7,176 nucleotides of DNA. Origin: Escherichia coli. GTDB taxonomy: Bacteria > Pseudomonadota > Gammaproteobacteria > Enterobacterales > Enterobacteriaceae. The notes below the pieces were generated by a model, which saw nothing but the letters and a program-made list of their open reading frames with translations, had not been told where the DNA came from and made no database searches. The stretch lies in NCBI RefSeq assembly GCF_965641715.1, contig NZ_OZ282458.1; one strand, written 5' to 3'. Of this stretch, positions 1-7,176 are shown in pieces (position 1 is the first letter of the stretch; every line of letters begins with the position of its first letter). The translations under genes and the position numbers were made by a program.

Positions 1-285
1 TTACTTGAACGCTGTGAGGGTAAACAACTGGCGGTATGGATGCGGCGGGTCTGCCTGGGGGAGCCGGTTGCCCGTTCCGGGAAGCTGCCGACACTGGCAC
101 CGCCGTTACTGCGTCAGCTGGCCGCCATCGGGAATAACCTGAATCAGACGGCGAGGAAGGTGAACAGCGAGCAGTGGTCTTCCGGTGACCGGGTTCAGGT
201 GGTGGCCGCACTGATGGCCATCGAGAGAGAGTTGCGCAGCTTACGGCAGGTCGTCAGGGAACATGGAGCGCGGGATGATAGTTAA
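1..285 (+). CDS. mbeC: Mobilization protein MbeC/MobC, 5'-truncated by the window edge (about 12 N-terminal codons missing)
   Basis: Frame 1 is open from position 1. Translation ...LAAIGNNLNQTARKVNSEQWSSGDRVQVVAALMAIERELRSLRQVVREHGARDDS matches my memory of ColE1-family MbeC. Stop TAA at 283-285 overlaps the mbeA start, the classic ColE1 arrangement. Confidence 0.85.
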   Translation, partial: LLERCEGKQLAVWMRRVCLGEPVARSGKLPTLAPPLLRQLAAIGNNLNQTARKVNSEQWSSGDRVQVVAALMAIERELRSLRQVVREHGARDDS

Positions 286-1828
286 GTTTCATGCCAGGGG
301 AAAAGGCGGTGGCAGTGGTCCGGTTGATTACCTGCTGGGAAGGGAGCGTAACCGGGAAGGGGCAACGGTGCTTCAGGGTGATCCGGAAGAAGTCCGGGAA
401 CTCATCGATGCCACGCCATTTGCGAAGAAATACACGTCAGGTGTTCTGTCGTTCGCGGAGAAGGAGCTGCCGCCGGGAGGACGTGAAAAGGTGATGGCGA
501 GCTTTGAGCGTGTACTGATGCCCGGTCTCGAAAAGAATCAGTACAGCATCCTGTGGGTAGAGCACCAGGACAAGGGACGGCTTGAGCTGAATTTTGTCAT
601 TCCGAACATGGAGCTACAGACCGGAAAACGCCTCCAGCCGTACTACGACCGGGCAGACAGGCCGAGAATTGATGCCTGGCAGACGCTGGTGAATCACCAT
701 TACGGGCTGCATGACCCCAACGCCCCGGAGAACCGCCGGACGCTGACCCTTCCTGATAACCTGCCGGAAACGAAACAGGCGCTTGCAGAGAGCGTCACAC
801 GCGGGATAGACGCTCTTTATCATGTCGGGGAGATAAAAGGCCGTCAGGATGTGATTCAGGCGCTCACAGAGGCAGGGCTTGAAGTGGTCAGGGTGACGCG
901 AAGCAGTATCAGCATTGCAGACCCGAACGGTGGGAAGAATATCAGGCTGAAAGGAGCATTTTATGAGCAATCTTTTACAGACGGGCGCGGAGTTCGAGAA
1001 AAAGCTGAAAGAGAGAGCCGAATCTACAGAGACAATGCTGAACGACGAGTTCAGCAAGCTCGAAAAATCTGTAAGCAAGGCTGTGACATCAAACGAGACG
1101 AAAATCAAAGACGCTATAGCCCTGTTCACAGCTTCGACAGAGGAATCACTGAAAAAACACCGGGAAGGGGTGAAAGAGGCGATGATGCAGCACAGGAAGG
1201 ACGTGTTAAAGCTGGCAGGGAATACGGGCATGATGTTACTGGGGATGGTCATTTTCCTGTTTACCGTGAGTGGCGGGACGCTCTGGTATCTTGGCGGGAT
1301 GATACAGGCGAACCTGGAAGAAATCAGGATACAGGAAGAAACATTGCAGAAACTGAACGCGAAGACATGGGGCGTGGAGTTTGTGCAGGACGGGAGAAGG
1401 AAATTTCTGGTCATCCCGCAGGGGAAATCGGCAACGGTGATTCCCTATCAGGGGAAGGACTGGGTACAACTGACGGAGTGACACAGAGTGACGGAGCTGG
1501 AAAGACATTTGCTGAACGCCTTAGAGCAACTGCAACAGGACTATATGCAGCGGCTGAACGAATGGGAGAGCGCCTTCGTGGAATTGCAGAAAATGTTTTC
1601 GCTTACGCAACAGGACAACGCGATGCTGAACGAGCAGGTCATGCAGTTGAGTCAGCAGGTGCAGCACTTGAGCGAGCGGACAGAACGCTTGAGCCAGTTA
1701 TACAGCGAGAACAGGAGATAAGGGACGAACGGCTGATACAGGAGCGCGAACATGAGTTATCCCTGGAGCGTGAGCGCCAGCTGGAAATACAGGAACGGAC
1801 ACTGGATGGCCCTTCGCTGGGATGGTAA
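275..1828 (+). CDS. mbeA: ColE1-type mobilization relaxase MbeA/MobA
   Basis: ORF beginning MIVKFHARGKGGGSGPVDYLLGRERNREGATVLQGDPEEVRELIDATPFAKKY... and ending ...ERTLDGPSLGW is near-identical to my recollection of ColE1 MbeA. ATG at 275 preferred over the track's ATG at 263 because MIVKF is the known N-terminus. Confidence 0.9.
   Translation: MIVKFHARGKGGGSGPVDYLLGRERNREGATVLQGDPEEVRELIDATPFAKKYTSGVLSFAEKELPPGGREKVMASFERVLMPGLEKNQYSILWVEHQDKGRLELNFVIPNMELQTGKRLQPYYDRADRPRIDAWQTLVNHHYGLHDPNAPENRRTLTLPDNLPETKQALAESVTRGIDALYHVGEIKGRQDVIQALTEAGLEVVRVTRSSISIADPNGGKNIRLKGAFYEQSFTDGRGVREKAERESRIYRDNAERRVQQARKICKQGCDIKRDENQRRYSPVHSFDRGITEKTPGRGERGDDAAQEGRVKAGREYGHDVTGDGHFPVYREWRDALVSWRDDTGEPGRNQDTGRNIAETEREDMGRGVCAGREKEISGHPAGEIGNGDSLSGEGLGTTDGVTQSDGAGKTFAERLRATATGLYAAAERMGERLRGIAENVFAYATGQRDAERAGHAVESAGAALERADRTLEPVIQREQEIRDERLIQEREHELSLERERQLEIQERTLDGPSLGW
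963..1481 (+). CDS. mbeB: Mobilization protein MbeB, encoded entirely inside mbeA in an alternate frame
   Basis: 172-aa ORF MSNLLQTGAEFEKKLKERAESTETMLNDEFSKLEKS... Nested position within mbeA is the known ColE1 organisation. Contains a hydrophobic segment (MMLLGMVIFLFTVSGGTLWYLGGMI). Confidence 0.8.
   Translation: MSNLLQTGAEFEKKLKERAESTETMLNDEFSKLEKSVSKAVTSNETKIKDAIALFTASTEESLKKHREGVKEAMMQHRKDVLKLAGNTGMMLLGMVIFLFTVSGGTLWYLGGMIQANLEEIRIQEETLQKLNAKTWGVEFVQDGRRKFLVIPQGKSATVIPYQGKDWVQLTE
1488..1721 (+). CDS. mbeD: Mobilization protein MbeD (small coiled-coil protein), GTG start, overlapping the 3' part of mbeA
   Basis: GTG at 1488-1490 immediately after the mbeB stop (1479-1481). Product TELERHLLNALEQLQQDYMQRLNEWESAFVELQ... 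sits at the position of ColE1 mbeD. Confidence 0.7.
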   Translation: MTELERHLLNALEQLQQDYMQRLNEWESAFVELQKMFSLTQQDNAMLNEQVMQLSQQVQHLSERTERLSQLYSENRR

Positions 1829-1949
1829 TCAGAGACAGGCTAAAATGTTGTCAGCGCGTTTCCGGTGCATTTTTTGGGATAATGGTTGGTTCGGGGGCAC
1901 CGGGAACGCGCTTCAGTCAGACCTTGCTGAAAACACAGGAACGCGTTAA
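1752..1949 (+). CDS. Possible small mob-associated ORF (MbeE-like position) overlapping the mbeA 3' end; uncertain
   Basis: 65-aa ORF at the position where ColE1 carries a fifth small mob ORF. I do not recognise the protein sequence itself, so this is positional only. Confidence 0.3.
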   Translation: MSYPWSVSASWKYRNGHWMALRWDGNQRQAKMLSARFRCIFWDNGWFGGTGNALQSDLAENTGTR

Positions 1950-2039
1950 AACGCATACGGGCGCGATTCTGGTGTGTCTTTTGTTGCTGTGTTTTGCCTC
2001 TATTGCCAGATCGCGCTCATTCCCCTGAACTTCTGTTTT

Positions 2040-2280
2040 CCCGCTCCGGTCCCCGTCTTCTTCGCTTCCGAAAGCATGAAAAAAATCCGTTTCAGCAGTC
2101 TCTGGCTGGCAATTCCTGCGTGATTCACATGGCTGCATAGCTATGCATGTGGTTAAAATTTACCGGGTGCGATCGCGGCAGTTTTTCGGGTGGTTTGTTG
2201 CCATTTTTACCTGTCTGCTGCCGTGATCGCACCGAACGCGTTTCTGCGGTGCGGGCAACGGATGTTATGGTAAATACAAT
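2040..2280. promoter_or_regulatory. cer: cer-like plasmid multimer-resolution site (accessory sequences plus XerC/XerD core)
   Basis: Segment cgcggcagtttttcgggtggtttgttgccatttttacctgtctgctgccgtgatcgc...gaacgcgttt...gcggtgcg...ttatggtaaat closely matches recalled ColE1 cer. Perfect palindrome tgcatagctatgca at 2134-2147 lies about 110 bp upstream of the core, where ArgR binds in cer. Confidence 0.75.
2248..2275. promoter_or_regulatory. XerC/XerD recombination core: XerC arm GGTGCGGGCAA, 6-bp central region CGGATG, XerD arm TTATGGTAAAT
   Basis: XerD arm is identical to the ColE1 cer/dif-type consensus TTATGGTAAAT. XerC arm differs from cer (GGTGCGTACAA) at two positions. Central region is 6 bp rather than the 8 bp of ColE1 cer. 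Confidence 0.7.
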
Positions 2281-2332
2281 ATGCAGCCAGTCTTAGAGAC
2301 GAAAAGTCCGCCCAGAAGACTGACTTTTCAGA

Positions 2333-2539
2333 TCAACCTTCAGCATCTAACTTGTCTATCGCTTTTTTATTGCGCCGATAGGTAGCCATTAGTTCACCAT
2401 CGCCTGATTGTAAGTCACGACCTGCTTGCTCAGCATAGGTATCGTTTACAGTCTTAGCGCCTTTTTTATAGGCCTTTTTAACATCATCAAATCCGGCTTG
2501 GATGACTTCTTTCGGCTTTTCTTGAGGTAATTTAGCCAT
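2333..2539 (-). CDS. Hypothetical 68-aa protein, second gene of a two-gene operon; function unknown
   Basis: ORF MAKLPQEKPKEVIQAGFDDVKKAYKKGAKTVNDTYAEQAGRDLQSGDGELMATYRRNKKAIDKLDAEG. ATG at 2539 preceded by GAGGA with 8-nt spacing. Start overlaps the upstream gene's stop (ATGGCTAA, 8-bp overlap), implying translational coupling. AT-rich like the neighbouring R-M genes. Confidence 0.6.
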   Translation of the reverse strand: MAKLPQEKPKEVIQAGFDDVKKAYKKGAKTVNDTYAEQAGRDLQSGDGELMATYRRNKKAIDKLDAEG

Positions 2540-2915
2540 GCTGTGAATCCTCTATAAGGTTGATTATTTTTCCAACAGATAAGACGGCATCTTCTGTGTC
2601 GCTGATTTTATGATTTATCCAACCGTCCTCTATCTTTAATTTGTTCACTACTCCTAATGTAAAAACAACCTTTTTTTCAGGAAAGAAAATTGCAAAGGTT
2701 CTACTTTTCTCTTTCCAATCAGAGGGCGGCGTCGAACGGAACGCTACATTCCTCGATTTAAGTATCGCTTTGATTTTACTAATTAATTCTTTTTTTTGTT
2801 TATTGCTGAGATTTTTGACGAACCCTTTGCTGAGATTGTCTGTGTAATCATCAAAAGAAATATCAACTGGTTTGTTTTTTTGTTTTTTATCAGATAGATG
2901 AACAATGTTTGACAC
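2532..2915 (-). CDS. Hypothetical 127-aa lysine-rich protein, first gene of the two-gene operon; function unknown
   Basis: ORF ...SNIVHLSDKKQKNKPVDISFDDYTDNLSKGFVKNLSNKQKKELISKIKAILKSRNVAFRSTPPSDWKEKSRTFAIFFPEKKVVFTLGVVNKLKIEDGWINHKISDTEDAVLSVGKIINLIEDSQHG. Initiation codon at 2915 is GTG, preceded by AGGA with 6-nt spacing. No motif I recognise. Confidence 0.6.
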   Translation of the reverse strand: MSNIVHLSDKKQKNKPVDISFDDYTDNLSKGFVKNLSNKQKKELISKIKAILKSRNVAFRSTPPSDWKEKSRTFAIFFPEKKVVFTLGVVNKLKIEDGWINHKISDTEDAVLSVGKIINLIEDSQHG

Positions 2916-3054
2916 TGGATATCCTGCTTTTTGATGAATGAATACTCAGAAGAGTAGCGGAACTGTCTTGTTAGTCACAGAGGTAGAGTATCAATTCTAC
3001 GATAGATGGGTTCGAAGATCCGGCTGAGACCGTTCAGTACGCGGTCGAGATGTT

Positions 3055-3059
3055 ATGTT
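3055..3059. repeat. 5-bp target-site duplication ATGTT, left copy
   Basis: ATGTT immediately outside the GGGG terminus of the left inverted repeat; identical pentamer at 3269-3273. Confidence 0.8.
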
Positions 3060-3097
3060 GGGGTCTGAAGTCCAATGGAACGAAAACGTACGTTAGT
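3060..3097 (+). repeat. Left terminal inverted repeat, Tn3 family
   Basis: GGGGTCTGAAGTCCAATGGAACGAAAACGTACGTTAGT matches the Tn3 right-end IR recalled from pBR322/pUC (GGGGTCTGACGCTCAGTGGAACGAAAACTCACGTTAAG) at about 30 of 38 positions, and is closer to the gamma-delta/Tn1000-type end as I recall it. Confidence 0.8.
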
Positions 3098-3230
3098 GAA
3101 GTAACTGTATGATATATCAAGACATAATAGACATAGAAAAACGCCATCAAAACGGTGTCTTTTTAATCGAAAATTGGCACTTAACGGACGGCATTGTCTA
3201 CTAATCGATTTTTAAGACGATAATTTTCCT

Positions 3231-3268
3231 CTTACCGTACATTTTCGTACGGTTGGCCCTCAAACCCC
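3231..3268 (-). repeat. Right terminal inverted repeat, Tn3 family
   Basis: Reverse complement of 3231-3268 is GGGGTTTGAGGGCCAACCGTACGAAAATGTACGGTAAG, matching the left IR at 28 of 38 positions including the GGGG terminus and the ACGAAAA core. Confidence 0.8.
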
Positions 3269-3273
3269 ATGTT
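3269..3273. repeat. 5-bp target-site duplication ATGTT, right copy
   Basis: ATGTT immediately outside the right IR terminus; identical to 3055-3059. Confidence 0.8.
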
Positions 3274-3519
3274 CAATGTAATGACCGTCGAAATTGCCTT
3301 TACGGGCATGAAGCAACCAGGAGCAATCATTGGCAAAGGTAACTAGAGTTCAATGCATGGTAATCATTTTTGAGCTTGTGATGCATAGAGTTGGTTGCTG
3401 TTCCATTGCGTCTCAAACTCCGTCAAGATGCTCGCCGTAAAAGCGAGCATGTCTAGTATGCCTGTTCCGCTACTGATTTTTGATGGGCGAATTCAGGGCT
3501 GGCTAGCCACCAAGAAAAA

Positions 3520-4581
3520 TTACTTTATTTCATCAAACAGGTGAGATGCAGTATAATAAACGCTTTGATCAAAGCGTCTCTCTGGGCTTAATTTATTTTG
3601 CCCGCCATTTAAAATTATTTCTTTTAATACTGATGGTGGAAGGATGGGTTTTGTTCTTCTTGGGTGATCCATATAAGCTTTTGTTATTTTTCCGTTTAGC
3701 GAGAACTCTTTATCACTTTGATATCCAAAGTTCATCTCAGTATAAATTCTATTGATGTTTGTCTTGTTTTTGCTCGCAATTTCATACACCATTCTGGCGA
3801 GTCTGGCTGATGATCTCATTAGTCTGCTGGCAGATGAATTGTTATATGAGGATCTATCAATAAAGGTTCGACACAAAGCAAAATCACTCCAGATGAATAT
3901 GTCAAAGGCATTTTGATCTAATATTGGGCTCTTGCCTTTTGTTTTCCATAATGGTTGCATTAAAAAAGGTTTCTGGTAATCAAGAAAATTTTCTTGGAAA
4001 GTGTTTAGGCAATTTAATATATTTTCTTTCTTTGAAAGAACTTCAGTTTCATTCCCCCAGTGCTGTATGCTTTCGCATGTGGATTCAAATATTTTTCTTA
4101 TTTCATGGAATTTATCGCTGCAAGAGTGCATTATGCCAAGGGCACAATAAGAAGTGCTTGCAGGTCTTATTACAATCTCTGAACTCCATTCGCTCTCGTT
4201 TTCTTTATATGTCGTGCTATCTGGGAGTACGGTTAATTTTATTTCTAGTGCTTTTAAAAAACTATTGTTTCCTTTTATAACTAGATCTATTCCTTTTATG
4301 TCATCATAAGCATACTGTTGGTATGGTTCATATTTTTTCTCAAATTGAAATTCAAGATCACTATTTTTTAATGTTGTGTTAAAAACGAAGTCAAAAGATA
4401 CTTCTTTGGCATGCACTTTTAAATCCTTATCTAAATAAAGATAAATCGGATTCATTTTGTTGTCTCTCATATAACATGCTAGAGAGGTGGGAAAAGAACT
4501 GTTAAATTGGTTCTTTCCCCACAGATCGCTCTCTTTCCTGTTGGTGTTTTTTAAACCATAAAGAGATTCTATTTTGCTCAC
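3520..4581 (-). CDS. Putative Type II restriction endonuclease, PD-(D/E)xK-like
   Basis: 353-aa ORF divergent from the C5-methyltransferase gene. GTG start at 4581 preceded by AGGAG with 6-nt spacing. Translation contains D99 (GIDLVIK) then 13 residues to E113-I-K115 (ALEIKL), the spacing expected for a PD-(D/E)xK catalytic core. AT-rich. No match recalled to a named enzyme. Confidence is about 0.85 that it is a real gene, about 0.55 for the function. Confidence 0.6.
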   Translation of the reverse strand: MSKIESLYGLKNTNRKESDLWGKNQFNSSFPTSLACYMRDNKMNPIYLYLDKDLKVHAKEVSFDFVFNTTLKNSDLEFQFEKKYEPYQQYAYDDIKGIDLVIKGNNSFLKALEIKLTVLPDSTTYKENESEWSSEIVIRPASTSYCALGIMHSCSDKFHEIRKIFESTCESIQHWGNETEVLSKKENILNCLNTFQENFLDYQKPFLMQPLWKTKGKSPILDQNAFDIFIWSDFALCRTFIDRSSYNNSSASRLMRSSARLARMVYEIASKNKTNINRIYTEMNFGYQSDKEFSLNGKITKAYMDHPRRTKPILPPSVLKEIILNGGQNKLSPERRFDQSVYYTASHLFDEIK

Positions 4582-4668
4582 TTTTTGCTCCTGACGTCAA
4601 TTTATTGACGTCTATGGTGTGTTTCTATATCATGATGTGGAGTGATATGATAATGAGTTTTTTATGTT
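4582..4668. promoter_or_regulatory. Divergent R/M promoter-operator region with tandem TTGACGTCAA palindromes
   Basis: cTGACGTCAAtttaTTGACGTCta at 4591-4614 gives two copies of a palindromic decamer 4 bp apart. The second copy supplies a -35 (TTGACG, 4605-4610) for the plus-strand M promoter; 17-bp spacer; -10 TATCAT at 4628-4633. The R-gene SD lies directly beside the first copy. Confidence 0.5.
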
Positions 4669-5826
4669 ATGAGAATAATTGATCTTTTTAGTGGGTGTGG
4701 GGGGTTATCCCTAGGCTTTTTGAAGGGGGGGTTTGATGTTGTAGGTGCTTATGATTTCTGGGATCCTGCTATTGAATGTTACAGAGATAATTTTAGCCAT
4801 CCGATAAAAAAACTAGATTTGAGCAATGTTGATGATGTGGTGAGGGAGCTTAAAGATATAGACTTCGATATGATTATTGGAGGGCCTCCTTGCCAAGACT
4901 TCAGTCATGCAGGTTTAAGAATTGAAGGTGCTAGAGCTAACTTAACTCGCTCATTTTCAGAAATTATAAAAAGAATAAAGCCAAAGTGGTTTGTGATGGA
5001 AAATGTAGATCGGGCATTAAGAAGTGGTGCCTATTTAGAAGCTCGAGGAATCTTTAAAGAATCAGGGTATGGGTTAACAGAAATTGTTTTGGATGCCAGT
5101 AAGTGTGGTGTTCCGCAAAAAAGAAAAAGATTATTTGTAATTGGAAAGCTTGACGTGAGGGATGGTTTTATCCTTAACGAAGTGATGTGCGGGATATCGA
5201 AAGATAGTATGACAGTTAGAAATTATCTTGGTGATTCATTGGGGATTGAGTATTATTACAGACATCCGAGAAATTATAACAGAAGGGCTATTTTCTCTAT
5301 TGATGAACCTGCGCCAACAGTAAGAGGGGTTAATAGACCGATACCTGATGGATATTTAGGGCATGCAGGCGATCCTGTCAGTATTTCTGAGAATGTAAGG
5401 CCATTAACAACCTTTGAAAGAGCAAGATTGCAAACATTTCCTGAAGACTTTAAATTTAAAGGTGCAAAAACAAATTTGGAGCAAATGATAGGTAATGCTG
5501 TTCCGGTTGAGTTAGCAAAATATGTTGCGGTGACAATCATGGAGTATGAAAAAAAACAAGTAAAAGGTATTTATGATAAAGAAGGCTTTAGGGCGTGGTT
5601 GCTGAATGAAAAGAAACTAACAAAAAGAACCTCTAGCGATATTATATCTAGATGTTGCAGAGGTGTTTCATTTTTTGATTCAGAGGGGGTGGATTTTTAT
5701 AACTGTGAAATAGATGAAATTATTATGAAACTGGAAAGGCTTGAATCGTTTGTCAGGCTTGGGGTTAGCCTGAAGTCTCAGTTAAGAAGGGCTTTTAAAT
5801 TATATTACGAATATTGTCGAAGGTAA
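4669..5826 (+). CDS. DNA (cytosine-5)-methyltransferase with a C-terminal extension of about 95 aa
   Basis: All canonical C5-MTase motifs in order: motif I FSGCGG (aa 7-12), motif IV GGPPCQDFS (catalytic Cys75), motif VI ENV (aa 111-113), motif VIII QKRKR (aa 150-154), short target-recognition region, motif IX RPLTTFERARLQTFPEDF, motif X GNAVPVELAKYVA. About 95 further residues follow motif X. Confidence 0.92.
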   Translation: MRIIDLFSGCGGLSLGFLKGGFDVVGAYDFWDPAIECYRDNFSHPIKKLDLSNVDDVVRELKDIDFDMIIGGPPCQDFSHAGLRIEGARANLTRSFSEIIKRIKPKWFVMENVDRALRSGAYLEARGIFKESGYGLTEIVLDASKCGVPQKRKRLFVIGKLDVRDGFILNEVMCGISKDSMTVRNYLGDSLGIEYYYRHPRNYNRRAIFSIDEPAPTVRGVNRPIPDGYLGHAGDPVSISENVRPLTTFERARLQTFPEDFKFKGAKTNLEQMIGNAVPVELAKYVAVTIMEYEKKQVKGIYDKEGFRAWLLNEKKLTKRTSSDIISRCCRGVSFFDSEGVDFYNCEIDEIIMKLERLESFVRLGVSLKSQLRRAFKLYYEYCRR

Positions 5827-5886
5827 TAAATACGAATTTATGTCTCTCAGGGGAGGGGGAGGGGATAAAAAGATCAAAGGATCCTC

Positions 5887-5915
5887 TTGTGATCCTTTTT
5901 TTCTGCGCGTAATCT
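5887..5915 (+). promoter_or_regulatory. RNAII (primer) promoter: -35 TTGTGA (5887-5892), 17-bp spacer, -10 TAATCT (5910-5915)
   Basis: Collinear with the pMB1/ColE1 RNAII promoter (cttcTTGAGAtcc...cgTAATCTgctgcttGcaaac). Predicted start at G5923. Confidence 0.7.
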
Positions 5916-5922
5916 GCTGCCT

Positions 5923-6470
5923 GTAAACAAAAAAACCACCGCTACCAACGGTGGTTTGTTTGCCGGAATCTAGAGCTACCAACTCTTTCTTCCGAAGGTA
6001 ACTGGCTTGGTGGAGCACAGATACCAAATACTGTCCTTCTAGTGTAGCCGCAGTTAGGCCACCACTTCAAGAACTCTTAATATCTCAATCCACCTTGTCC
6101 AGTTACCAGTGGCTGCTGCCAGTGGCGCTTTGTCGTGTCTTACCGGGTTGGACTCAAGACGATAGTTACCGGATAAGGCGCAGCGGTCGGGCTGAACGGG
6201 GGGTTCGTGCACACAGCCCAGCTTGGAGCGAACGACCTACACCGAACTGAGATACCAACAGCGTGAGCTATGAGAAAGCGCCACGCTTCCCGAAGGGAGA
6301 AAGGCGGACAGGTATCCGGTAAGCGGCAGGGTCGGAACAGGAGAGCGCACGAGGGAGCTTCCAGGGGGAAACGCCTGGTATCTTTAAGTCCTGTCGGGTT
6401 TCGCCACCTCTGACTTGAGCGTCGATTTTTGTGATGCTCGTCAGGGGGGCGGAGCCTATGGAAAAACGCC
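5923..6470 (+). ncRNA. RNAII replication primer precursor of the ColE1-type replicon (3' end approximate)
   Basis: Long near-identity to the pMB1/pUC ori sequence (GTAAACAAAAAAACCACCGCTACC...GGGGAAACGCCTGGTATCTTTA...GGAGCCTATGGAAAAACGCCAGC) with clustered substitutions in the 5' stem-loops. Confidence 0.8.
5925..6034 (-). ncRNA. RNAI antisense copy-number control RNA (about 108 nt)
   Basis: Reverse complement begins ACAGTATTTGGTATCTGTGCTCCACCAAGCCAGTTACC... and ends at the GCGGTGGTTTTTTTGTTTAC terminator, as in pMB1 RNAI. Promoter on the minus strand: -35 TTGAAG and -10 TACACT within 6035-6070. Confidence 0.8.
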
Positions 6471-6480
6471 AGCGGCGTGG
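6440..6480 (+). other. Approximate replication origin (RNAII-to-DNA transition) of the ColE1-type replicon
   Basis: Position inferred by collinearity with the pBR322 origin relative to rop and the conserved ggagcctatggaaaaacgccagc block. Exact nucleotide not determinable here. Confidence 0.5.
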
Positions 6481-6639
6481 CCTTCTCTGGGTTCTTGTTT
6501 TTTGCTCACATGTTTCTTTTGGTGTTATCCCCTGATTCTGTGGATAACCGCATTACCGTCTTTGAGTGAGCTGATACCGCTCGCCGCAGCCGAACGACCG
6601 AGCGTAGCGAGTCAGTGAGCGAGGAAGCGGAAGAGCGTC

Positions 6640-6790
6640 GGAAGTTGCATTTTCTCCTTACACATCTGTGCGGCATTTCACACCCGGCATGGCGCACTTT
6701 TCATACAATCTGCACTGATGCCGCATGGTTAAGCCAGTATACACTCCGCTATCGCTACGTGACTGGGTCAGGGCTTCGCCCCGACACCCG
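6640..6790 (-). promoter_or_regulatory. oriT/bom region of the ColE1-type mob system; predicted nic between minus-strand G6734 and C6733
   Basis: Between origin and rop, as in pBR322 bom. Minus strand reads gtgtatACTGG|CTTAAccatgcgg, matching the ColE1 nic context as I recall it (CTGG/CTTA). Both the boundaries and the nick position are from memory. Confidence 0.5.
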
Positions 6791-6882
6791 CAAGGTCAAC
6801 GGCCTGACGCGCCCTGACGGGCTTGTCTGCTCCCGGCATCCGCTCACAGACAAGCTGTGACCGTCTCCGGGAGCTGTATGTG

Positions 6883-7074
6883 TCAGAGGTTTTCACCGTC
6901 ATCCCCGAAGCGTGCGAGGCAGCTGCGGTAAAGCTCATCGGCGTGGTCGTGAAGCGATTCACAGATGTCTGCCTGTTCATCCGCGTCCAGTTCGTTGAGC
7001 TTTTCCAGCAGCGTTAATGTCTGGCTTCTGATAAAGCGCGCCATGTTAAGGGCTGTTTTTTCCTGTTTAGTCAC
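6883..7074 (-). CDS. rop: Rop/Rom (RNA one modulator), 63 aa, GTG start
   Basis: Translation VTKQEKTALNMARFIRSQTLTLLEKLNELDADEQADICESLHDHADELYRSCLARFGDDGENL is identical to pBR322 Rop as I recall it. GTG at 7074 preceded by GGAGG with 5-nt spacing. The track's extension to 7170 is the usual upstream open frame, not the gene. Confidence 0.95.
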   Translation of the reverse strand: MTKQEKTALNMARFIRSQTLTLLEKLNELDADEQADICESLHDHADELYRSCLARFGDDGENL

Positions 7075-7176
7075 TGATGCCTCCGTGTAAGGGGGATTTC
7101 TGTTCATGGGGTAATGATACCGATGAAACGCGAGAGGATGCTCACGATACGGGTTACTGATGATGAACATGCACGG

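Follow-up and report, generated by a model that had tools for sequence, protein, structure and literature searches.

The window, the whole stretch of 7,176 nucleotides of Escherichia coli DNA analysed here, begins inside mbeC and ends shortly upstream of rop, two genes that are neighbours in ColE1. The question it raises is whether a piece of a circular plasmid is missing between its ends, or whether the circle is complete and was opened within a gene. We conclude with high confidence, judging from the sequence, that the window is one full copy of a circular ColE1-type plasmid of the pEC34B lineage, 7,176 bp long, and that position 7176 joins position 1 directly. Circularity is deduced from the logic of the window sequence itself and from its comparison with other records.

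Closure of the circle within mbeC

The features on either side of the junction are as follows.

6883..7074, minus strand: rop/rom, 63 aa, GTG start (PF01815, 128.6 bits; 63/63 residues identical to ColE1 Rop)
7075..7137, no strand: divergent rop–mbeC spacer, 63 bp
7138..7176, plus strand: mbeC (mobC) codons 1–13, ATG at 7138, MLTIRVTDDEHAR; the ORF goes on at window position 1
1..285, plus strand: mbeC (mobC) codons 14–107 and stop codon; joined ORF 107 aa

The left edge was correctly placed inside mbeC by the preliminary description, as frame 1 of positions 1–285 reads LLERCEGKQ... to the stop codon. The right edge, which had been put about 100 bp upstream of rop, lies 102 bp upstream of its start codon, and these final 102 bases consist of the rop–mbeC spacer and the first 13 codons of mbeC. 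When 7176 is joined to 1, with GAACATGCACGG before the join and TTACTTGAACGC after it, the codons continue in frame and give an uninterrupted 107-aa MbeC/MobC ORF with no stop or frameshift. The joined protein, complete only once the window is circularised, is 93.5% identical to ColE1 MbeC and equal to it in length; its NikA-like Pfam match (residues 2–66) spans the junction, and a MobC match covers residues 50–94. The two window ends share no overlap as long as 5 bp, indicating that no terminal bases are duplicated. In ColE1, rop (1612–1803, minus) and mobC (1867–2190, plus) are likewise divergent neighbours. The spacer between them has the same length of 63 bp in the window, ColE1 and p2009C_3675-2.

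The junction was also found as internal sequence in independent circular records. A 300-bp junction sequence was identical (300/300, gapless) to positions 4855–5154 of the circular plasmid p2009C_3675-2 (NZ_CP077533.1, 7,175 bp), and a 600-bp junction sequence was identical (600/600, gapless) to sequence within AP024697.1. Among PLSDB records, 1,040 contained 80% or more of the junction in one place. ColE1 is colinear across it, with window 5868–7176, a ColE1-type replicon region of 92% identity, corresponding to ColE1 586–1905 and window 1–1826 to 1906–3731; pEC34B and a 10,981-bp derivative are likewise colinear. The listed relatives with a window coverage of 93% or more were circular records of 6.7–7.2 kb, two 10,981-bp records that carry a Tn3-family insertion, and records of 13.4–13.9 kb that look like dimers, the window matching each of them in more than one place.

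The preliminary description had the window as almost complete, with a short segment missing between its ends. Such a segment would hold the mbeC N-terminus, a promoter and perhaps oriT, and the one observation in its favour is that position 1 falls inside mbeC. The sequence nevertheless refutes it, and we give it next to no probability: the 13 supposedly missing codons and the whole 63-bp spacer are present at 7075–7176, the junction is 100% identical and gapless to internal sequence of complete circular relatives, the total length departs from that of the nearest relative (7,176 vs 7,175 bp) only by one 1-bp indel, at 6426, and oriT lies within the window between ori and rop. What stands of the description is a circular ColE1-type replicon, opened in mbeC, that carries a restriction-modification, small-operon and miniature-element cargo; what falls is its incompleteness.

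Two further readings concern the source of the window. In the first, the window is a slice, precisely one monomer long, of a larger molecule: a tandem dimer or multimer, or an assembly artefact with more than one copy. Such a slice of a multimer would indeed look the same, and database records of 13,927, 13,930 and 13,431 bp each match the window in more than one place. However, a circular monomer record that has been properly trimmed shows just this exact unit length, with neither redundancy nor loss, and a dimer sliced at random would show it only by coincidence. This reading is therefore very unlikely, and the replicon unit is complete either way. The second, in which the sequence belongs to a plasmid integrated into a chromosome or cointegrated with a far larger replicon, was rejected as having hardly any probability. 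The window matches E. coli genomes in 4,249 places, 286 of them chromosomal (counted at any window coverage), but the listed records with a coverage of 93% or more are all small plasmids, and the junction is contiguous in a circular relative. In an integrated copy, the ends would meet and restore mbeC only if integration had happened precisely at the edges of the window. For the complete monomer that we prefer, the circle would have been opened arbitrarily between mbeC codons 13 and 14.

Replication, multimer resolution and mobilisation

Parts for replication, copy control, multimer resolution and mobilisation had all been ascribed to the window, and all were located in it, the multimer-resolution site at the level of sequence.

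5927..6032, minus strand: RNAI antisense copy-number regulator (Rfam RF00106, 65.9 bits vs gathering score 47, full-length match)
5925..6480, plus strand: RNAII primer region to replication origin (about 92% identity to the ColE1 ori region; end approximate and inferred)
2130..2278, plus strand: cer-like multimer-resolution site (84.8% identical to ColE1 3792–3941)
2248..2275, plus strand: cer-like core, GGTGCGGGCAA-CGGATG-TTATGGTAAAT (arm search and ColE1 alignment)
6680..6860, no strand: oriT/bom region (near-identical to ColE1 1411–1590)
275..1828, plus strand: mbeA relaxase, 517 aa (NF047848 relax_MbeA_E1, 882 bits vs cut-off 500)
963..1481, plus strand: mbeB, 172 aa, nested in mbeA in another frame (Pfam MbeB_N, 72.8 bits; 86.0% identical to ColE1 MbeB)
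1488..1721, plus strand: mbeD, mobilisation/entry-exclusion protein, 77 aa, nested in mbeA (NF033829, 116.9 bits; PF04899, 118.5 bits; 92.2% identical to ColE1 MbeD)

By analogy with ColE1 and pSNC3-Kan, the start of RNAII was set 2 nt past the RNAI 3' end and the origin approximately 545–555 nt downstream. RNAII would prime replication, and copy number would be controlled by antisense RNAI, with its three stem-loops, and by the accessory protein Rop. Family profile searches gave no Rep-family match among the window ORFs. A 52-aa ORF named “replication initiation protein” by RefSeq lies inside RNAII and has no family match.

The 30-bp core of ColE1 cer, searched as a pattern with at most 8 substitutions, had no match in the window. 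It missed the cer-like site because the central region is 2 bp shorter (6 bp vs 8 bp), and the site was found by a separate search for the arms and by alignment with ColE1. The XerD arm matches that of ColE1 cer at 11/11 positions and the XerC arm at 9/11, and 120 bp upstream of the core are homologous to the cer accessory region, for which approximately 180 bp of accessory sequence would be expected. This Xer site is expected to resolve multimers. Its function is not guaranteed, since its core differs from that of ColE1 cer in the two XerC-arm mismatches and the 6-bp central region.

The relaxase MbeA is 91.9% identical to its ColE1 counterpart, and MbeA, MbeC, MbeB and MbeD are each equal in length to the respective ColE1 protein. 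The MbeA motifs as listed in PMC9282650 are intact, namely the catalytic tyrosine Y19 and, at residue 97, HQDKGRLELNF (HEN; HQD-x4-ELNF). The oriT/bom region is positioned between oriV and rop, as in the annotations of pEC34B and pSNC3-Kan. Its bounds are approximate and were delimited by homology alone, because a literature search for the ColE1 nic site gave relative positions only. Close relatives of the plasmid have been typed as MOBP and mobilizable. According to the literature, IncF, IncP, IncI and IncW plasmids mobilise ColE1, and the tra genes of F and IncP mobilised pSNC3-Kan, which shares approximately 95% Mob protein identity with pEC34B (PMC9282650). Given the intact mob genes and oriT, the typing of the relatives and the published experiments on relatives, a co-resident conjugative plasmid could mobilise the replicon, and an IncF, IncI or IncP helper can reasonably be inferred.

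The low-GC cargo and its IS101 copy

The cargo block has a G + C content of 36.8%, compared with 54.0% in the backbone.

2333..2915, minus strand: two overlapping ORFs in the low-GC cargo, 127 aa (2532–2915) and 68 aa (2333–2539), with no assigned function
3060..3268, no strand: IS101 copy, 209-bp Tn3-derived miniature element (193/209 positions identical, ungapped, to pSC101 2024–2232)
3520..4581, minus strand: HindVP-family type II restriction endonuclease, 353 aa (PF09519, 341 bits; PADLOC REase_II, 294 bits)
4669..5826, plus strand: DNA cytosine-5 methyltransferase, 385 aa (PF00145, 213 bits; TIGR00675; PADLOC MTase_II, 451 bits)

The endonuclease and methyltransferase genes are divergent, 87 bp apart, and constitute a predicted HindVP-type type II restriction-modification (R-M) pair. 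HindVP-type enzymes recognise GRCGYC. The pair would probably provide phage restriction and post-segregational stabilisation.

The proteins of the two-gene operon had no informative match in Pfam, NCBIfam, PADLOC or PHROGs. Searches of PDB sequences returned nothing for the 127-aa protein and chance-level matches only for the 68-aa protein (E 0.19 or worse). In a search of 5.8 billion proteins, the 127-aa protein gave only seven near-identical clusters, and it is restricted to the plasmid lineage of the window and one Cronobacter plasmid. The shallow alignment from that search yielded an AlphaFold2 model whose mean pLDDT was 57, which was judged too poor for a fold search. No relatives of the operon were detectable beyond a handful of small enterobacterial plasmids; it stands alongside the HindVP R-M pair in the window and without that pair on the Cronobacter plasmid. 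The operon may represent a plasmid cargo module that is self-contained and has so far escaped description, perhaps with a maintenance or anti-defence function, a suggestion to which we give a low probability.

The IS101 copy shows the traits of its class: a length of 209 bp, Tn3-family terminal inverted repeats (37 nt), a 5-bp target duplication and no transposase gene. The duplication is seen as direct repeats of ATGTT at 3055–3059 and 3269–3273. IS101 of pSC101 (NC_002056.1, 2024–2232) likewise has 209 bp, Tn3-type inverted repeats and 5-bp direct repeats, and differs from the window copy by 16 substitutions (92% identity, ungapped). pEC34B and the 6,715-bp relatives lack IS101, and their alignments with the window overlap by 5 bp at the empty site. 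These observations show that IS101 inserted later, within the low-GC cargo block. PLSDB holds 110 plasmid records with copies at least 99% identical to the IS101 variant of the window. Ends shared between IS101 and the Tn3-family transposon of the 10,981-bp derivative were sought at blastn-short sensitivity and none were found; that transposon lies in mbeA and not at the IS101 site.

Relatives and significance of the plasmid

The nearest relative, p2009C_3675-2 from E. coli O111:H8, has the same gene content and order as the window, including IS101, and is 99.9% identical over the full length, with three substitutions and one 1-bp indel; its record was opened 2,172 bp from the opening point of the window. 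pEC34B (NC_019078.1 / HQ622576, 6,952 bp) from E. coli O34 NCTC 9034, which served as the reference for oriT and mob annotation (PMC9282650), is colinear with the window throughout at approximately 98% identity and shares the backbone, the R-M pair and the two-gene operon. By contrast, it lacks the 209-bp IS101 and has a single ATGTT at the empty site, and its endonuclease gene is annotated as shorter (951 nt) than that of the window. The window plasmid is thus essentially pEC34B plus IS101. ColE1 (NC_001371.1, 6,646 bp) is colinear from RNAI through ori, oriT, rop, mbeC and mbeA/B/D to cer at 92–93% DNA identity, whereas in place of the R-M pair, two-gene operon and IS101 of the window it has genes for colicin E1, immunity, lysis and exclusion. 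The stretch of approximately 300 bp after mbeA (window 1827–2129) is not common to ColE1.

The plasmid and its lineage are already known from many earlier E. coli sequences, and its completeness and backbone are nothing new. Of 5,426 complete E. coli genomes, 39 contain a copy with a window coverage of 80% or more. The window should be handled as a whole closed plasmid, with no hidden gene or oriT to look for in a gap, and the annotation of mbeC should run across the record origin. The plasmid is an example of a small mobilisable replicon spreading a type II R-M system and IS101 among E. coli, including Shiga-toxin-producing strains.

Continuity of the window ends

Judged from its sequence, the window is one whole monomer of a circular plasmid with a textbook ColE1 backbone. 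It belongs to a known lineage, which includes pEC34B, p2009C_3675-2 and numerous relatives of 6,715 bp; among 5,426 complete genomes of E. coli, 39 have a copy that covers 80% or more of the window. The preliminary description of a circular ColE1-type replicon, a routine inference, stood apart from one factual error. It placed the left edge correctly inside mbeC, where frame 1 in the window ORF list is open from position 1 (stop at 283-285), and the right edge about 100 bp upstream of the rop start, the actual distance being 102 bp (GTG at 7074). The error was a short segment supposedly missing between the ends: the last 102 bases hold the spacer and 13 mbeC codons, and the junction is intact in independent records.

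Features at the right window edge
6883-7074, minus strand: rop by ORF reading (GTG start 7074, stop 6883-6885)
7075-7137: rop-mbeC spacer, 63 bp
7138-7176, plus strand: mbeC codons 1-13 (GAGAGG-ATG then MLTIRVTDDEHAR), in frame into position 1

Rop constitutes the C-terminal 63 residues of a longer minus-strand ORF in the same list. Concatenation of 7138-7176 with 1-285 yielded an uninterrupted 107-aa protein, equal in length to ColE1 MbeC and 93.5% identical to it, which matched Pfam MobC at residues 50-94 and a NikA-like ribbon-helix-helix domain at residues 2-66, the latter spanning the join, which falls between residues 13 and 14. The window ends share no terminal sequence as long as 5 bp. 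No bases are lost or doubled there.

Among complete E. coli genomes, p2009C_3675-2 (NZ_CP077533.1; E. coli O111:H8; circular, 7,175 bp) came closest to the window, whose last 150 and first 150 bases lie at its internal positions 4855-5154; once rotated, the full window shows three substitutions relative to that record and a single 1-bp indel, at 6426. A 600-bp junction query matched an internal stretch of AP024697.1, and in 1,040 PLSDB records a single place spanned 80% or more of that query. ColE1 runs colinear with the window across the join (window 5868-7176 to ColE1 586-1905; window 1-1826 to ColE1 1906-3731), and its rop and MobC genes also diverge from a spacer of 63 bp. pEC34B and the 10,981-bp derivative are likewise unbroken across it.

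A near-complete replicon with a gap between its ends is refuted, as the joined ends restore the MbeC ORF and the junction matches p2009C_3675-2 at 300/300 and AP024697.1 at 600/600 positions. It is very unlikely that the window is part of a chromosome or large replicon, given that its ends rebuild mbeC exactly. The records that matched 93% or more of the window were circular 6.7-7.2 kb plasmids, two 10,981-bp entries whose mbeA is interrupted by a Tn3-family transposon, or 13.4-13.9 kb records of dimer-like look, in each of which the window matched at several places. NZ_JBSZTH010000005.1 (13,927 bp), NZ_CP159167.1 (13,930 bp) and NZ_CP148429.1 (13,431 bp), with more than one match place, are about twice monomer length; such records may be either true dimers or long-read assembly duplications. 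It is possible but improbable that the window is itself a monomer-length slice of a dimer, and the unit would be complete even then.

Replication, copy control and multimer resolution

The ColE1 replication, copy-control and mobilisation components previously described are all present, full length and 86-100% identical to their ColE1 counterparts. Identity to ColE1 is 92% across the RNAII/ori region, oriT and rop, and the Rop proteins are identical (63/63).

Features of replication and resolution
5927-6032, minus strand: RNAI (Rfam model matched over its full length; 65.9 bits, gathering score 47)
6054-6212, minus strand: 52-aa ORF, 'replication initiation protein' in the RefSeq annotation of relatives
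2130-2278: cer-like site, 85% identical to ColE1 cer
2248-2275: cer-like core, GGTGCGGGCAA-CGGATG-TTATGGTAAAT

Following established ColE1 biology, RNAII would prime replication, with RNAI and Rop as negative control, and XerCD would resolve multimers at the cer-like site. ColE1-type replication requires no plasmid Rep protein. Family profile searches gave no Rep family match for any window ORF and no family match for the 52-aa ORF, which lies inside the RNAII/ori region and whose label is probably an annotation artefact. The XerD arm of the cer-like core is identical to that of ColE1 cer, whereas the XerC arm matches at 9/11 positions and the central region is 6 bp (CGGATG) instead of 8 bp. 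Multimer resolution, which had been claimed outright, is accordingly likely but the least secure among the backbone functions.

Low-GC cargo and IS101

The GC content of 2330-5830 is 36.8%, against 54.0% for the backbone, which suggests a foreign block.

Features of the cargo
2333-2915, minus strand: two ORFs that overlap, of 127 aa and 68 aa
3060-3268 (3055-3273 with repeats): IS101 copy (Tn3-type terminal inverted repeats of 37 nt; direct repeats of 5 bp, ATGTT)
3520-4581, minus strand: HindVP-family endonuclease (Pfam, 341 bits)
4669-5826, divergent from the endonuclease: cytosine-5 methyltransferase (Pfam, 213 bits)

The miniature element reported earlier proved real, with both inverted and direct repeats. 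IS101, a Tn3-derived miniature element of 209 bp, was originally discovered on pSC101, and Tn1000 moves it (PMC13367494); the window copy is identical to pSC101 2024-2232 at 193/209 positions (92%), ungapped. The window's variant, at 99% identity or more, occurred in 110 plasmid records, several ETEC plasmids among them. Neither pEC34B nor the 6,715-bp relatives have an insertion at this site, so the window reads as a pEC34B-type plasmid plus IS101.

The ORFs of the two-gene operon overlap by 8 nt (2532-2539), which contain the downstream ATG and the upstream TAA. Its proteins had no informative match in Pfam, NCBIfam, PADLOC, PHROGs or PDB sequences. The 127-aa protein formed only 7 clusters among 5.8 billion proteins and was found in 22 PLSDB plasmids, all of the window's lineage except Cronobacter pA84-3 (3069-3452), where it occurs without the HindVP restriction-modification pair. 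Its AlphaFold2 model, from a shallow alignment, was of low confidence (mean pLDDT 57).

Mobilisation module

The stretch matching ColE1 oriT is almost invariant relative to ColE1 and, in agreement with the annotation of pEC34B and pSNC3-Kan, sits between ori and rop (PMC9282650).

Features of the module
275-1828: mbeA (NCBIfam relax_MbeA_E1, 882 bits)
1822-2028: 68-aa ORF, possible mobE

MbeA keeps Tyr19 and HQDKGRLELNF, and mbeB and mbeD are full length, nested within mbeA. About 300 bp downstream of mbeA (1827-2129) are absent from ColE1 and kept in pEC34B; the 6,715-bp relatives have 73 bp in their place. In pEC34B a mobE gene is reported to follow mobA, and the 68-aa ORF at 1822-2028 may be its counterpart. 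Window mbeA is intact and full length, whereas in one 6,715-bp relative examined (NZ_CP074997.1) the only annotation of the mbeA region, 3683-4003, is a truncated 'nuclease' pseudogene. The 10,981-bp derivative NZ_CP148354.1 carries a ~3.8 kb Tn3-family transposon (tnpA, tnpR) at 5978-9760, which splits mbeA near window position 700; the relaxase is disrupted, and the MOB-suite type is still mobilizable. Its IS101 copy is identical to the window's, and the transposon ends showed no likeness to IS101 at blastn-short sensitivity.

Close relatives were typed mobilizable/MOBP. IncF, IncP, IncI and IncW plasmids have been reported to mobilise ColE1, and F and IncP tra genes mobilised pSNC3-Kan, a plasmid that shares about 95% identity with pEC34B in its Mob proteins (PMC9282650). 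By analogy with ColE1, MbeA would nick at oriT with MbeC assistance and the plasmid would then pass through the helper's mating apparatus. We infer that the plasmid would be mobilisable by a helper conjugative plasmid.
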